Source: Promethearchaeota archaeon
Lineage (GTDB): Archaea; Asgardarchaeota; Lokiarchaeia; Sigyniarchaeales; SOKP01
Assembly (NCBI GenBank): GCA_037386725.1
Contig: JARRLT010000115.1
Span: forward strand, 1 to 5,619
Direction: 5' to 3'
Length of the DNA: 5,619 nucleotides
In this document: piece after piece, positions 770 to 4,193 of the stretch
Layout of the letters: each line of letters begins with the position of its first letter
Numbering within the stretch: position 1 is the stretch's first letter
The notes under the pieces: generated by a model
The model's database searches: none
Told to the model about the DNA's origin: nothing
Seen by the model: the letters and a program-made list of their open reading frames with translations, nothing else
Made by a program: the position numbers and the translations under genes

Positions 770-2875
770 ATGAATAACCCAAACCTTAATTTAAACATAA
801 TAAAACATGAGGAGAAACTTGAAAGTAGAAATGATTTGTTAAAGAAATACGCCTTTCGAGACATTTATAAAAATATTCCTACTCCTATCCATATATGGCA
901 AAGGATTTCAGATAATTTTGTATTACTTGATTATAATACCGCAGCGAACGAGCTAGCTCAAGAAAAGTTAAGAGACTGTATTGGTATTAAAGCTTCAGAA
1001 CTTTTTAAAGATAATCCTCATATTATTAAAGATTTAAATAAATGTTTTAAATCCAAAATTTCATTAACTAAAGAAATTGAATATACTTTTAAAACAACAA
1101 GGGAAAGCATATTTTTATTTGTGAAATATATTTTTGTATCCCCAGATATCGTTTTAGCTTATCATCAAGATATTAGCCAGCGAATAAAAACCGAAATCAA
1201 ATTGTTAGAGTCAAATCAAAAATTCGAAGCTCTTTTTAAACAATCTCCTATATGTATAGCGATCTTTAGCATAGAGGGATATTTAGAAGACATAAATCCT
1301 GCTATAGAAAAATTGATTGGTTATAGAAAAAATGAAGTTGTAGGAAAACATTTTACAGAAATAGATCTTTATCCTCCAGAAGTATTATCTTTAATTCAAA
1401 AACGTCAGAAGGAATTGAAGTCCAAAAACCTTTTAAATACAATTGAAATCCAACTTAAAAGAAAAAACGGAGAATTTATATGGGTAATATCACAAGTTTC
1501 GAAAATTAAAATCCATGAAAGTGAATATTTTCAAGTAATTCTACAAGATGTTAATGATCTAAGAAAAATAGAGAAGCAATTGAGTAAAAAAGAAGAAGAT
1601 TATAAAAATATAATTGAAAACTTATCTGATTTAGTTATCCAGATTGATTATAGAGGAATTATTGAATACATTAGCCCCCAAATAAAAAAGGTTATGGGAT
1701 ATCAAAATGACGACCTTTTAGGTAAAAGTATTTTCAGTTTAATTCATCCCGAAGATATAGATAAATTTCTCATTGGAAAACAAGAAACTGAGCACACAGG
1801 AAAACCTCTTGAAATTGAATATAGAATGAAGAAAAAAGATGGAGGGTTTCTTTATGTTAGTATAAAAGGAAGATTAATTAATATGGAGGGAAAATTAGGA
1901 TTATTGGGTATTATTCGAGACATTTCTCCCAGAAAGAATGCAGAACTTCAAATTAAACGAAGATTAAAAATTGAAAAGCTTATCGCCAAAATTTCATCCA
2001 GATTTGCAGGAATAATAGACTTTAACGAAGCTATATATGGATCTCTTAAAGCTATGGGGACTTTTATCAATGCTAAAAGAGCATATTTATTTCTTTTTGA
2101 TCAAAATAAAGATTTTATGAGTAATACTAATGAATGGGTTGCACCTGGAATTGAACCTCAAATAATTCAATTGCAGCAAATTCCTTTAAAAAAATTATCT
2201 TTTTGGATTAAACAACTTAAGGAAGATGATTATATACGCGTATTGAATTCAGAAAACCTACTTCAACCAGAAAGCCCAAATACATATGTTATTGATAAAT
2301 ATTTTCATCAGAAAAACATCTACTCCATTTTAGTATATCCTATTAGAATTAAAGGAGAATTATCCGGTTTCCTTGGTTTTGATGATGTTTTAACAACTCG
2401 AAACTGGGAGAGAGATGATTTTAAAATTTTCAAAATTCCTTCTGAAATTATCGGAAATGTTTTAGAAAGGAAGTATGCTGAGGAAACATTGAAGGGAAGT
2501 CAAGAAATGTTGAAAAACGTATTAGCCTCAATAAATAATTATATTATCATAATTAATAAGGATTTTGAAATAATTTGGATTAATAATTTAGCTAAGACTC
2601 TATTTTCTGAAAATATAATTGGAAAAAAATGTTATAAAGCATATAGGAATAATGAAGTTCGATGTAAAGATTGTGTAGCCATCAAAACATTTAATGATAA
2701 TAAAAAATATGATCTTACATTTGAATTTCTTAGTTCTAAAGGGAAAAATAGATATTTTCATTGTATCTCTAATGCAATAGCCCATGATTCTCTTCGTGAA
2801 CCGGAATTAGTTGCTTTGATAGCAGATGATGTTACTAAATTGAAAAGATTAGAAGAAAAATTACAAAAACATTGA
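770..2875 (+). CDS. Multi-domain cytoplasmic sensor protein, PAS-PAS-PAS-GAF-PAS, with no recognisable output or transmitter domain
   Basis: 701-aa ORF from ATG to TGA, the longest in the window. Approximate domain spans by motif reading: PAS1 aa 25-137 (842..1180); PAS2 aa 148-263 (1211..1558; FKQSPICIAIFSIEGYLEDINPAIEKLIGYRKNEVVGKHF); PAS3 aa 275-388 (1592..1933; IIENLSDLVIQIDYRGIIEYISPQIKKVMGYQNDDLLGKSIFSLIHPED...GIIRDISPRK); GAF aa 398-565 (1961..2464; AKRAYLFLFD...ILVYPIRIKGELSGFLGFDD); PAS4 aa 575-690 (2492..2839). I saw no H-box (HE.R.PL), no N/G-box ATPase motifs, no receiver, no HTH and no TM segments. The protein ends in a short coiled-coil-like tail, KLKRLEEKLQKH. Confidence 0.9.
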   Translation: MNNPNLNLNIIKHEEKLESRNDLLKKYAFRDIYKNIPTPIHIWQRISDNFVLLDYNTAANELAQEKLRDCIGIKASELFKDNPHIIKDLNKCFKSKISLTKEIEYTFKTTRESIFLFVKYIFVSPDIVLAYHQDISQRIKTEIKLLESNQKFEALFKQSPICIAIFSIEGYLEDINPAIEKLIGYRKNEVVGKHFTEIDLYPPEVLSLIQKRQKELKSKNLLNTIEIQLKRKNGEFIWVISQVSKIKIHESEYFQVILQDVNDLRKIEKQLSKKEEDYKNIIENLSDLVIQIDYRGIIEYISPQIKKVMGYQNDDLLGKSIFSLIHPEDIDKFLIGKQETEHTGKPLEIEYRMKKKDGGFLYVSIKGRLINMEGKLGLLGIIRDISPRKNAELQIKRRLKIEKLIAKISSRFAGIIDFNEAIYGSLKAMGTFINAKRAYLFLFDQNKDFMSNTNEWVAPGIEPQIIQLQQIPLKKLSFWIKQLKEDDYIRVLNSENLLQPESPNTYVIDKYFHQKNIYSILVYPIRIKGELSGFLGFDDVLTTRNWERDDFKIFKIPSEIIGNVLERKYAEETLKGSQEMLKNVLASINNYIIIINKDFEIIWINNLAKTLFSENIIGKKCYKAYRNNEVRCKDCVAIKTFNDNKKYDLTFEFLSSKGKNRYFHCISNAIAHDSLREPELVALIADDVTKLKRLEEKLQKH

Positions 2876-3081: not shown

Positions 3082-3657
3082 TTATTCAATAGATTTTATA
3101 TTTTCTTCGTTTTCATTGCTTTCTCTATTGAGTTCTTCGTCTATTTCTAACTCTTCTACTGTTTTTTCTAATCGATCTAATGACCGCAAAGTTTCGTGGA
3201 TTTTCTTAATCTCAGCTCTTGTTTGAATATCTGCCTTTTTTAAGATTTCAAAAATTTTCTTTTCCCCATACCCTTGATCGTGGAGTTCTTTGAATTTTGA
3301 AATGAGATCTTTATGATAAAAGATGTAATTATCATTTTGATAAACAATCAACCATTTTTTCTTTTCTTGATTCTTTGAGAAGTTAAATATTATATTGTGT
3401 ATTTTTTGGGGATCCTTTCCTGTTTCTTTAATGAGAGTTTTCTCTTCGATACGATAATATTCCTTCATAGTTTTAAGCATCTTCCGCTTCAATAAGAATC
3501 TTGGAATATAGGAAAGGAGGAACAGAATCAATGTTACGATAGTTAAAATTATAGATAAGGTTATATTATATAATGCTACTATAATTAGAATTATTATAAG
3601 TAATAGAAACCATCTTCTACCGACCGATTTTAGAAATACAATATATTTTTTTGGCAA
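3082..3657 (-). CDS. Hypothetical membrane protein with an N-terminal hydrophobic hairpin (about 2 TM), a cytoplasmic alpha-helical region and an acidic tail
   Basis: 191-aa ORF. The codon at 3655..3657 is TTG, not ATG; the minus strand reads TTG CCA AAA AAA TAT. The next in-frame ATG is near codon 60, after the hydrophobic stretch WFLLLIIILIIVALYNITLSIILTIVTLILFLLSYI. The start is therefore uncertain. The C-terminus is charged and acidic (EELEIDEELNRESNENEENIKSIE). I recognise no family. Confidence 0.6.
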   Translation of the reverse strand: MPKKYIVFLKSVGRRWFLLLIIILIIVALYNITLSIILTIVTLILFLLSYIPRFLLKRKMLKTMKEYYRIEEKTLIKETGKDPQKIHNIIFNFSKNQEKKKWLIVYQNDNYIFYHKDLISKFKELHDQGYGEKKIFEILKKADIQTRAEIKKIHETLRSLDRLEKTVEELEIDEELNRESNENEENIKSIE

Positions 3658-3826
3658 TTTTATCCCTAATTTCTTTTTACCTTAAATTTATTTAATAAGT
3701 AATTTTAGATTGCTAAAAAGGTTTTCAGAATTAGTTTGCTTCTTTTAATTCCTTAAAATCCTTTTCAAAATTAATAAATTATGATCTATATTTCAAAATT
3801 TACGGGTTTTTAAAAATCAAGAAATT

Positions 3827-3831
3827 AAAAA
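3827..3831 (-). terminator. Oligo-T tract, candidate archaeal terminator downstream of the 5S-like gene
   Basis: The minus strand reads ...GGTTGTTTGATGTATCTTTTTAATTTC. The T5 run lies about 35 nt after the last 5S-homologous base (3865), and a shorter GTTGTTTG lies at 3846..3839. Confidence 0.3.
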
Positions 3832-3864
3832 GATACATCAAACAACCATATAAGTCTCGCGTTT

Positions 3865-3990
3865 CTGGGTTCGATATGGGACCAGGTGGTTCCCTCACGC
3901 ACCATGACCGTAGACGAATCTACAAGTTTGATATTTCGCATTAATTTCAATAACACTACTATTACCAACGTGTGTGAGTTTAACATCCAG
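3865..3990 (-). rRNA. 5S rRNA gene in circularly permuted order: helix II 3' strand - helix V/loop E/helix IV - helix I 3' strand - UUCG - helix I 5' strand - loop A - helix II 5' strand - helix III/loop C
   Basis: Minus-strand RNA: CUGGAUGUUAAACUCACACACGUUGGUAAUAGUAGUGUUAUUGAAAUUAAUGCGAAAUAUCAAACUUGUAGAUUCGUCUACGGUCAUGGUGCGUGAGGGAACCACCUGGUCCCAUAUCGAACCCAG. Matches to conserved 5S elements: (1) GUCUACGGUCAUGG resembles helix I 5' strand plus loop A (human GUCUACGGCCAUACC, archaeal GGCGGCCAUAGCGG). (2) CACCUGGUCCCAUAUCGAACCCAG resembles helix III/loop C (archaeal CACCCGGUCUCAUUUCGAACCCGG). (3) AUGUUAAAC resembles AAGUUAAGC. (4) GUUGGUAAUAGUAGUG...AUGCGAAAUAUCAAAC carries the loop E AGUA/GAA motif. 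Pairings checked by hand: helix I 3925-3919 with 3914-3908, 7 bp including 2 G.U, capped by UUCG (3918..3915); helix II 3902-3894 with 3978-3970, 8 of 9 pairs; helix III 3885-3882 with 3868-3865, with a 13-nt loop C; helix V 3969-3963 with 3933-3926, one bulged A; helix IV 3956-3949 with 3945-3938, loop GAA. GC is about 43% by hand count, against a much more AT-rich surrounding sequence. Exact ends are uncertain by a few nt. Confidence 0.75.
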
Positions 3991-4009
3991 CGCTGGGAGA
4001 TCTTCCCAA

Positions 4010-4017
4010 CTTATATA
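4010..4017 (-). promoter_or_regulatory. Candidate TATA box driving the permuted 5S gene
   Basis: The minus strand reads CGC-TATATAAG-TTGGG. Archaeal TATA boxes are centred about 26-27 nt upstream of the start site. That places initiation near 3986..3988 (U-G-G-A), which is where 5S homology begins (GGAUGUUAAAC). Confidence 0.45.
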
Positions 4018-4073
4018 GCGATTGACCTATGCATACTAATACCCAATAAGTCTTAAACTTTCGTATCTACAAT

Positions 4074-4091
4074 CCATTAATTTCTTAATGG
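4074..4091. other. Perfect 7-bp inverted repeat with a 4-nt spacer, CCATTAA-TTTC-TTAATGG
   Basis: Seen directly in the sequence. It lies between the stop of the peptidase gene (4235) and the 5S TATA box (4017). Its function is unknown; it could be a terminator hairpin or a protein-binding palindrome. Confidence 0.3.
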
Positions 4092-4193
4092 GTATAGTAA
4101 ATAACAATAATTAAAGTTAGTACTTAAATTTTACCTTAAATCAACCATAAAACTTTAATAGAAGGAATCTTGAGGGTGTAAAATTACAAAATT

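Follow-up and report, generated by a model that had tools for sequence, protein, structure and literature searches.

A circularly permuted 5S rRNA gene in Asgard archaea with a predicted bulge-helix-bulge processing motif

A Lokiarchaeota contig was found to encode its 5S rRNA with the two halves in swapped order, flanked by a relaxed bulge-helix-bulge (BHB) motif that should allow the splicing endonuclease to excise it and the product to be rejoined into a normal, probably circular, 5S. The window, meaning the whole 5,619-nt stretch of DNA analyzed here (contig JARRLT010000115.1), holds every 5S element once within 3984..3863 (122 nt) on the minus strand, in rotated order. The same layout in about 40 other Asgard genomes may explain why 5S genes are often reported missing in these archaea. 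An earlier note had proposed, from the sequence alone, a functional, circularly permuted chromosomal 5S gene in a free-living prokaryote with the long-range helix II preserved, and this interpretation is supported by our analysis. Its span of 3865..3990 is correct to within 6 nt at the 5' end and 2 nt at the 3' end. However, the note did not recognize how the permutation is resolved. Direct reading of the minus strand places the elements of the excised 5S as follows, with the termini given by the processing model:

3984..3970 (minus): GUUAAAC of the loop B 3' side and the helix II 3' strand, CUCACACAC
3969..3926 (minus): gamma domain (helix V, loop E, helix IV) with AGUA/GCGAA loop E
3925..3919 (minus): helix I 3' strand, UUGUAGA
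3918..3915 (minus): UUCG cap
3914..3908 (minus): helix I 5' strand, UCUACGG
3907..3894 (minus): loop A and helix II 5' strand, UCAUGGUGCGUGAG
3893..3887 (minus): loop B 5' side
3886..3865 (minus): helix III and loop C, CCUGG-UCCCAUAUCGAAC-CCAG
3864..3863 (minus): AA

In native order, the Rfam 5S_rRNA model (RF00001) matches only the 5' half, at 3915..~3850 and model positions 1-~65, with 23.3 bits against a gathering score of 38; the rest of that alignment is filler, and no canonical-order reading exists in the window. Eight related Asgard loci likewise gave no hit at the gathering threshold, while canonical 5S genes in control loci scored 76-97 bits. This failure is the expected result of the permutation and does not argue against the function, but it means that annotation pipelines miss the gene. 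A weak snR161 hit at 2350-2491 (23.7 bits against a threshold of 50, E = 0.65) lies inside the PAS-sensor ORF and was dismissed as chance. A sequence-only nhmmer profile built from 23 canonical archaeal 5S sequences scored the rotated window at 35.0 bits, with the alignment running across the predicted junction (HMM 15-71), whereas the native order scored 19.6 bits and stopped at the breakpoint (HMM 7-51). The 5' half aligns column for column with canonical archaeal 5S. In an alignment with four canonical archaeal sequences, the conserved columns of loop A (CAU.G), loop C (UCCCAU..CGAAC), loop B (AAGUUAA.C), and loop E (AGUA / G.GAA) are invariant, and the AGUA...GCGAA/GGGAA motif is present in all sequences. 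The MAFFT alignment of the gamma domain with canonical archaeal 5S is unreliable, and the structure of this domain rests on the Asgard-only alignment.

The permuted arrangement is far more than chance and is conserved in every related Asgard locus examined. A flanking 191-aa protein is 100% identical to a protein of a Candidatus Lokiarchaeota MAG, and an independent Logan assembly (SRR13768071) is identical over 340 nt. A search pattern lying wholly within the 5' half, and so blind to gene order, hit 37 genomes once each; all are Asgard and all are permuted, including the chromosome CP070805.1. A second closed chromosome, CP070831.1, was found by synteny to carry a permuted gene at the corresponding site, and homologous loci in 48 fetched Asgard contigs have the same order. 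After in silico processing, RNAalifold returned helices I-V in the 5S Y-shape for 30 distinct sequences. In this consensus, 98.1% of cells pair, against 83.8% in shuffles, and 17 of 32 pairs show compensatory changes; 0 of 500 shuffles reach the observed values, and slid controls pair at 25-47%. Compensatory substitutions occur in helix I, which is a local hairpin in the gene, in the long-range helix II, and in helices III, IV, and V. The circular minimum-free-energy (MFE) fold of the window's product gives the same Y-shape.

The flanks of the gene offer an explanation of how the permutation could be resolved. Leader and trailer form a processing stem whose inner end is a relaxed BHB motif. 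The features of the locus, in transcribed order, are as follows:

4121..4132 (minus): candidate archaeal BRE/TATA box, AAAATTTAAGTA, an inferred promoter; a second TATA-like stretch near 4051-4062 is an alternative
4039..4096 (minus): distal leader hairpin (UAUACCCAUUAAG ... CUUAUUGGGUAU) enclosing a degenerate, internally deleted copy of the end of the pre-5S unit
4009..4018 (minus): outer processing stem, 5' strand, CUAUAUAAGU
3995..4007 (minus): small leader hairpin (GGGA-AGAUC-UCCC) between the outer stem and the BHB
3991..3993 (minus): BHB flanking helix h, leader strand (GCG)
3987..3990 (minus): BHB central 4-bp helix H, leader strand (CUGG)
3984..3986 (minus): 5' three-nucleotide bulge AUG, with the predicted endonuclease cut between U3985 and G3984
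3863..3984 (minus): excised 5S rRNA, 122 nt, in permuted order
3865..3868 (minus): BHB helix H, trailer strand (CCAG), also the 3' strand of 5S helix III
3862..3864 (minus): 3' three-nucleotide bulge AAA, with the predicted cut between A3863 and A3862
3846..3861 (minus): trailer, comprising the h strand CGC (3861-3859), a GAG spacer, and the outer processing stem 3' strand ACUUAUAUGG (3855-3846)
3807..3832 (minus): T-rich tract (CTTTTTAATTTCTTGATTTTTAAAAA), a likely archaeal oligo-T terminator, inferred

The candidate promoter block is conserved between the window and its closest relative, L001 (AAAATTTAAGTA[C/T]TAA), and T-runs follow the trailer stem in relatives as well; in the absence of transcript data, both assignments are inferences. 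Three collinear direct repeats link the distal leader hairpin to the functional gene, namely 4075-4084 with 3939-3948 (10/10), 4062-4072 with 3915-3925 (10/11), and 4041-4053 with 3845-3857 (11/13), and an equivalent upstream hairpin is present in all relatives. The outer stem pairs 4009..4018 with 3855..3846 in the MFE fold of the precursor. An equivalent 10-15-bp leader-trailer duplex with a different sequence exists in all 40 relatives, with a mean duplex energy of -21.2 kcal/mol, against -11.2 for shuffled trailers. The small leader hairpin also forms in the MFE fold, and a hairpin sits at the same place in relatives, for example GUGC-UUUUC-GCAC and GUAGCG-ACU-CGCUAC.

The BHB motif itself is supported by position, covariation, and junction restoration. 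All 40 distinct precursors have the geometry of helix h, a 4-bp helix H, and a 3-nt bulge, with excised lengths of 120-122 nt, or about 150/181 nt where insertions are present. Across 34 distinct constructs, the two 3-nt bulges are separated by exactly 4 bp. Helix H, which in the window pairs CUGG with CCAG at 3868..3865, is paired in 100% of these constructs, with compensatory C-G (15), U-A (14), and U-G (5) at its second pair. The three inner pairs of helix h, which in the window pairs GCG with CGC at 3861..3859, are 100%, 91%, and 100% paired, with GC<->CG swaps. The MFE fold of the window's precursor reproduces the outer stem, the leader hairpin, and h, the AAA bulge, and H. In that fold, the trailer CCAG pairs with the leader CUGG and helix III is not formed, whereas in the folded product the same strand pairs with CCUGG; helix III can thus form only after release from the leader. 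However, the motif is of the relaxed hBH type rather than a strict hBHBh' motif, as helix h' does not form in register (27.5% paired) and h is only 3 bp in the window (up to 5 bp in relatives). Such a motif needs a broad-specificity EndA, and Asgard archaea are reported to have an (alpha-beta)2 EndA with the L1 loop, which is associated with cleavage of relaxed BHB motifs (PMC5829648). Furthermore, BHB-like geometry alone is common in this AT-rich sequence: a naive scan gave about 140-200 candidates per 340-nt precursor, and an automatic intron picker chose wrong sites in 4 loci and missed one. Geometry alone was therefore not used as evidence, and only sites fixed by homology were considered, with a null rate for the criteria of about 5e-4 per position. 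Folding energy was likewise not used as support, because the z-scores are not significant (-1.09 for the precursor and about 0 for the circular product).

Cutting at the standard bulge positions and ligating restores the canonical sequence. Joining A3863 to G3984 gives CCCAGAA followed by GUUAAAC, or ...AUCGAACCCAGAA followed by GUUAAACUCACACAC... in wider context, which matches the canonical loop B of archaeal 5S, reading CCCAGAAGUUAAAC or CCCGGAAGUUAAAC. The cut rule, between bulge nucleotides 2 and 3, was checked on a tRNA-Trp intron in locus L048; ARAGORN did not call this tRNA, and the intron was parsed by hand from the Rfam tRNA span. Notably, relatives use a second breakpoint in loop C, and in 8 distinct sequences of this kind, the same operation gives the canonical loop C, identical to the uninterrupted loop C of locus L015. 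The loop B and loop C junctions read CCYGGAA joined to GUUAAAC and GGUC joined to CCAUCCGAAC, respectively. Additionally, 23 of 40 precursors carry 30-31-nt insertions with HBh' geometry, whose removal by the same rule gives the sequence of the intron-less homologue. Every processed sequence is 120-122 nt long. A scan of metagenome contigs for junction-spanning sequence returned 43 hits, but all were ordinary 5S genes of other archaea or bacteria and none was Loki-like; these served as canonical references and as positive controls for Rfam.

Taken as a whole, the locus is best explained as the functional 5S rRNA gene of a Lokiarchaeota-type Asgard archaeon, encoded in circularly permuted order, a reading to which we assign a probability of roughly 0.8. 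In the proposed pathway, which is inferred from sequence without RNA data, the precursor is transcribed as a stand-alone unit and its leader and trailer pair into the processing stem. The tRNA splicing endonuclease (EndA) would cut in both bulges, and the RNA ligase (RtcB) would join A3863 to G3984, closing the breakpoint of the gene and recreating loop B, while the 3' strand of helix III is freed to form helix III. The product would be a 122-nt 5S whose helix I is closed by a UUCG tetraloop, that is, a covalently closed circle with normal 5S topology, which most likely enters the ribosome in that form. Whole genomes were not scanned, and a second, canonical 5S of divergent sequence elsewhere in these genomes is therefore not excluded.

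An alternative that we consider unlikely, although it is the strongest of the rivals, is that excision and ligation proceed as described but the circle is only an intermediate, reopened in or next to the helix I tetraloop to give a conventional linear 5S. Permuted tRNA genes of Cyanidioschyzon and Thermofilum are resolved in this way (PMC3978253, PMC3218864), and circular pre-16S and pre-23S are reopened in several archaea (PMC12918454). However, no nuclease is known to open a 5S helix I loop, and no conserved flanking signal is visible. The cap is always exactly 4 nt and mostly of the stable UNCG type (UUCG, UACG, CUCG, plus UUAG, UUUG, UAUG, and GUUA), a pattern that looks like a structural cap and not a processing site. 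The SRP RNA of Thermoproteus, moreover, stays circular (PMC4731332). Still less likely is a transcript that is trimmed or cut but never ligated, leaving a linear, permuted 5S with its ends in loop B. Brown-algal mitochondrial 5S rRNAs are permuted at the RNA level, with a closed hairpin in place of helix I (PMC4267664), and nothing in the DNA sequence can prove ligation. Nevertheless, the ends are defined by a BHB, whose cleavage products are the normal substrates of the archaeal ligase; eight distinct sequences from relatives place the break inside loop C, and many carry introns in loop C or helix IV, where continuity must be restored by ligation; and the junctions restore the canonical sequence to the nucleotide. 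A rearranged pseudogene or an assembly artefact, despite the sub-threshold Rfam half-hit, the short 5.6-kb source contig, and one NCBI contig of the same organism that breaks inside the gene, is effectively refuted by the compensatory changes in every helix, the conservation of loops A, B, C, and E, the identical independent assembly, and the single 5S-like locus per genome found with the order-neutral pattern, as far as this could be tested without whole-genome scans.

Several known systems resemble parts of this arrangement. The permuted SRP RNA gene of Thermoproteus tenax (Plagens et al. 2015, PMC4731332) is also an essential structured ncRNA gene of an archaeon that is encoded in circularly permuted order and was invisible to standard covariance models; its RNA is cut by EndA and functions as a circle. 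Here, the RNA is 5S rRNA, the lineage is Asgard and not Thermoproteales, the architecture varies among close relatives, with two breakpoints plus mini-introns, and circularization and EndA cleavage are only inferred, whereas they were demonstrated for SRP RNA. In the circularly permuted tRNA genes of Cyanidioschyzon merolae and Thermofilum pendens (PMC3978253, PMC3218864), the 3' half is likewise encoded upstream of the 5' half, a BHB forms at the precursor termini, excision and ligation pass through a circular RNA, and permutation can coexist with BHB introns in the same gene. However, tRNA circles are reopened by RNase P and tRNase Z at the acceptor-stem linker, while the 5S linker is a tight tetraloop for which no processing enzyme is known. 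In archaeal 16S and 23S rRNA (PMC7758197, PMC12918454, PMC10515664), leader and trailer form a processing stem with a BHB, and EndA cuts and ligation give a circular rRNA species; circular 23S has been reported within archaeal ribosomes, and circular 16S/23S transcripts were detected for Asgard archaea (PMC12918454). Those genes are collinear with the mature RNA, so any permutation arises after transcription, and 5S rRNA was explicitly described as not taking this route (PMC12918454). Finally, the permuted mitochondrial 5S rRNA of brown algae and other stramenopiles (Valach et al. 2014, PMC4267664; Rfam mtPerm-5S) shares a helix I that is a closed hairpin, ends that lie elsewhere, and a failure to be detected by the standard 5S model. 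The mitochondrial case is organellar, its ends lie at the alpha/gamma junction and not in loop B or loop C, it has no BHB and no ligation, and its final RNA stays permuted. No mtPerm-5S hit was reported by Rfam for our locus.

These findings add 5S to the short list of RNAs known to be permuted at gene level, and no prior description was found in the searchable literature. To our knowledge, and as far as that literature shows, this is also the first 5S gene reported with BHB introns. The fact that these genes fall below the standard Rfam threshold affects MAG quality standards that require a 5S. The variety of architectures among near-identical mature sequences offers a natural series for studying how permuted and split RNA genes arise. 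More tentatively, it is possible that the 5S rRNA in the ribosomes of a large clade of Asgard archaea is a covalently closed circle, made by the tRNA-splicing machinery from permuted and often intron-containing genes whose architecture has been reshuffled repeatedly among close relatives, with two permutation points and at least five intron sites all resolved by one enzyme system. If so, 5S biogenesis in this clade depends wholly on EndA and RtcB, and permuted or otherwise disrupted genes of this kind would also account for the inability to predict 5S rRNA in closed Asgard genomes, including Heimdallarchaeia.

The window is very AT-rich, at about 27% G+C, with a local rise to about 40% at 3800-4000. 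When the minus strand was read directly, 3984..3863 was found to contain the following 5S elements, once each and in this order:

GUUAAAC, the 3' side of loop B
the helix II 3' strand, CUCACACAC
a gamma domain with an AGUA/GCGAA loop E
the helix I 3' strand, UUGUAGA
UUCG
the helix I 5' strand, UCUACGG
loop A, UCAUGG
the helix II 5' strand
helix III/loop C, CCUGG-UCCCAUAUCGAAC-CCAG

The earlier note, which had proposed a circularly permuted 5S rRNA gene at 3865-3990, is correct in this observation, and its coordinates are within a few nucleotides of the ends we infer. The Rfam 5S model sees only the 5' half in native order, scoring 23.3 bits against a gathering score of 38, and the 3' part of that alignment is filler. 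A weak Rfam hit to the yeast snoRNA snR161 at 2350-2491 (+) (23.7 bits against a threshold of 50, E = 0.65) lies inside the PAS-sensor ORF and is judged to be chance. Additionally, ORFs of 53 and 56 aa at 3825-3986 (-) and 3886-4056 (+) overlap the RNA gene, the first starting at the AUG that forms the 5' bulge of the bulge-helix-bulge (BHB) motif described below. These ORFs are almost certainly spurious but could be called as genes.

The flanking genes are a PAS/GAF sensor, a cupin, a 191-aa protein with no Pfam match, and the C-terminal part of a C25 peptidase. The C25 fragment is 50-60% identical to proteins of Asgard MAGs, whereas the 191-aa protein is 100% identical to a protein of a 'Candidatus Lokiarchaeota archaeon' MAG, although the taxonomic labels of the MAGs are the submitters' own. 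An independent Logan assembly of run SRR13768071 matches 340 nt of the locus without a mismatch. An NCBI contig of the same organism (GCA_037386705.1, JARRLU010000436.1) starts at its position 1 in the middle of the 5S gene, at CACACGUUGG. At least one assembler broke the contig there, but the order is the same. Misassembly is therefore excluded.

The gene neighbourhood (GTPase, 75-aa ORF, C25 peptidase, a gap, the 180-191-aa protein, PAS sensor, cupin, Arf/Ras GTPases) is conserved in Asgard contigs, and every gap holds a permuted 5S. The 180-191-aa protein, encoded at 3082-3657 (-) in the window and by orthologues in the related loci L001-L010 and L093, has an N-terminal hydrophobic segment and always lies directly downstream of the 5S gene on the same strand; one JGI record labels an orthologue as a 'UPF0154 family' protein. 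To examine conservation more widely, one genome per prokaryotic species was scanned with a 30-nt degenerate pattern lying entirely within the 5' half and therefore blind to gene order. The pattern hit 37 genomes, once each. All are Asgard MAGs, including chromosome CP070805.1 and a 998-kb contig, and all 37 are permuted. A second closed chromosome, CP070831.1 (locus L093), was missed by the pattern because of one base but has a permuted gene at the syntenic site. Notably, eight of these loci gave no 5S hit at the Rfam gathering threshold, while canonical 5S genes in control loci scored 76-97 bits.

We found no description of a permuted or intron-containing archaeal 5S gene in the literature searched, although most subscription journals were outside its scope and prior description elsewhere cannot be excluded. 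The only permuted 5S on record there is the brown-algal mitochondrial one, which differs in breakpoint and mechanism (PMC4267664), and a 2023 survey of natural RNA permutations lists no archaeal 5S (PMC10085705). Authors of closed Heimdallarchaeum genomes reported that 5S genes could not be predicted (PMC8813620). Nevertheless, some other Asgard lineages do have detectable 5S genes (PMC9723677).

To understand how the permutation is resolved, the leader and trailer of the gene were compared across related loci. In all 40 distinct precursor sequences, they form, from outside to inside, an outer 10-15-bp stem whose sequence differs between lineages (mean duplex energy -21.2 kcal/mol against -11.2 for shuffled trailers), a small leader hairpin, and a BHB core in which each strand reads 5' to 3' as a 4-nt H strand followed by a 3-nt bulge. 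In the window the leader reads GCG-CUGG-AU^G and the trailer reads CCAG-AA^A-CGC, where the caret marks the predicted cut. The cut was placed between bulge nucleotides 2 and 3, as is probably usual in archaeal splicing. This rule reproduces the canonical 37/38 exon boundaries of a control gene, a 132-nt tRNA-Trp(CCA) gene with a canonical BHB intron that lies next to a canonical 5S in a non-Asgard archaeal contig (L048, 896-1027, minus strand), which Rfam called but ARAGORN did not. Applied here, the rule gives a 122-nt product in which CCCAGAA is joined to GUUAAAC, exactly the string that canonical archaeal 5S carry at this point.

Counts on 34 distinct leader/trailer constructs showed that H is paired in 100% of constructs, with C-G, U-A and U-G at its variable pair and never C-A. 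The three inner pairs of h are 91-100% paired, with GC/CG swaps, whereas h' does not form in register. The motif is therefore the relaxed hBH type. Asgard archaea are reported to have the (alpha-beta)2 endonuclease with the L1 insert, which is linked to cleavage of relaxed motifs (PMC5829648). The minimum-free-energy fold of the window precursor reproduces the outer stem, the leader hairpin and the h-AAA bulge-H arrangement, and in that fold the helix III 3' strand is held by the leader. The folded circular product has the 5S Y-shape. However, the z-scores are not significant, so energy is not used as evidence. Further upstream, the leader at 4041-4084 (minus strand) contains three short segments collinear with the functional unit, GAAAUUAAUG, UUGUAGAUACG and AGACUUAUUGGGU, which look like a decayed, internally deleted upstream copy of the pre-5S unit. 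All relatives have an upstream hairpin resembling a second processing stem; it may overlap the real promoter, although the promoter and terminator assignments are themselves inferred.

The sequences were then processed in silico and rotated to start at helix I. All 40 are 120-122 nt, and 30 of them are distinct. RNAalifold returned helices I, II, III, V and IV, with changes on both sides in 17 of 32 pairs. In total, 98.1% of cells pair, a value that 0 of 500 shuffles reach, against 83.8% in column shuffles and 25-47% when partners are slid. The 5' half aligns column for column with canonical archaeal 5S. Moreover, a sequence profile of 23 canonical archaeal 5S scores the rotated window at 35.0 bits with the alignment crossing the junction, whereas the native order scores 19.6 bits and stops at the breakpoint. 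The product is thus a 5S.

In the absence of transcript or enzymatic data, our best explanation is EndA excision followed by ligation into a circular 5S whose helix I is capped by a tetraloop. Precedents include the permuted SRP RNA of Thermoproteus, which is cut by EndA and works as a circle (PMC4731332), and circular 23S rRNA reported in archaeal ribosomes (PMC12918454). Alternatively, the circle could be reopened at the cap, as in permuted tRNAs. We consider this less likely because the cap is always 4 nt, is mostly UNCG-like and has no conserved processing signal. A linear, unligated permuted product is unlikely, as are a pseudogene and an artefact, although whole genomes could not be scanned for a second 5S.

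Variation in relatives, although not present in the window, bears on the mechanism. Eight distinct sequences use a different breakpoint, inside loop C, in which the leader reads ..GCG-CYGG-AA^C-CAUCCGAACCCGGAAGUUAAAC and the trailer CCCGG-UC^A-CGCU. The resulting junction, GGUC joined to CCAUCCGAAC, is identical to the uninterrupted loop C of the related locus L015. This second permutation point, observed in loci L002/L003/L046, L014, L018, L020, L021, L030, L036, L042 and L093 (CP070831.1, about 2730-2890 of the locus), uses a homologous leader/trailer cassette. The leader CYGG pairs with the 5' strand of helix III instead of the 3' strand, which is possible because CCGG is palindromic. Near-identical mature sequences can come from different architectures: L018 has the loop C breakpoint, while L045 has the loop B breakpoint plus a loop C intron, and their leaders and trailers are homologous.

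Furthermore, 23 of 40 precursors carry one or two 30-31-nt insertions in loop C or helix IV, among them those of L004 (~12450-12480), L011 (~760-790 and a second one upstream in helix IV), L013, L026 (~2440-2470), L027, L028, L033, L034, L037, L040, L041 and L045. The insertions sit at five or more sites, two in loop C and three in helix IV. Each has HBh' geometry at the homology-defined boundaries, criteria that are met at about 5e-4 of positions in shuffles, and removal by the same rule gives the sequence of intron-less relatives. To our knowledge, and in the searchable literature, BHB introns have not been described in a 5S rRNA gene; the window's own gene has none. The loop C intron of L026 contains a near-copy of the gene's own beta-domain segment (AGGGAUAAUACCCGGUCCC against AGGAUAAUACCCGGUCCC), which suggests that the intron arose by local duplication. 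One enzyme system is therefore inferred to resolve all the variants, and continuity has to be restored by ligation in at least the intron and loop C cases.
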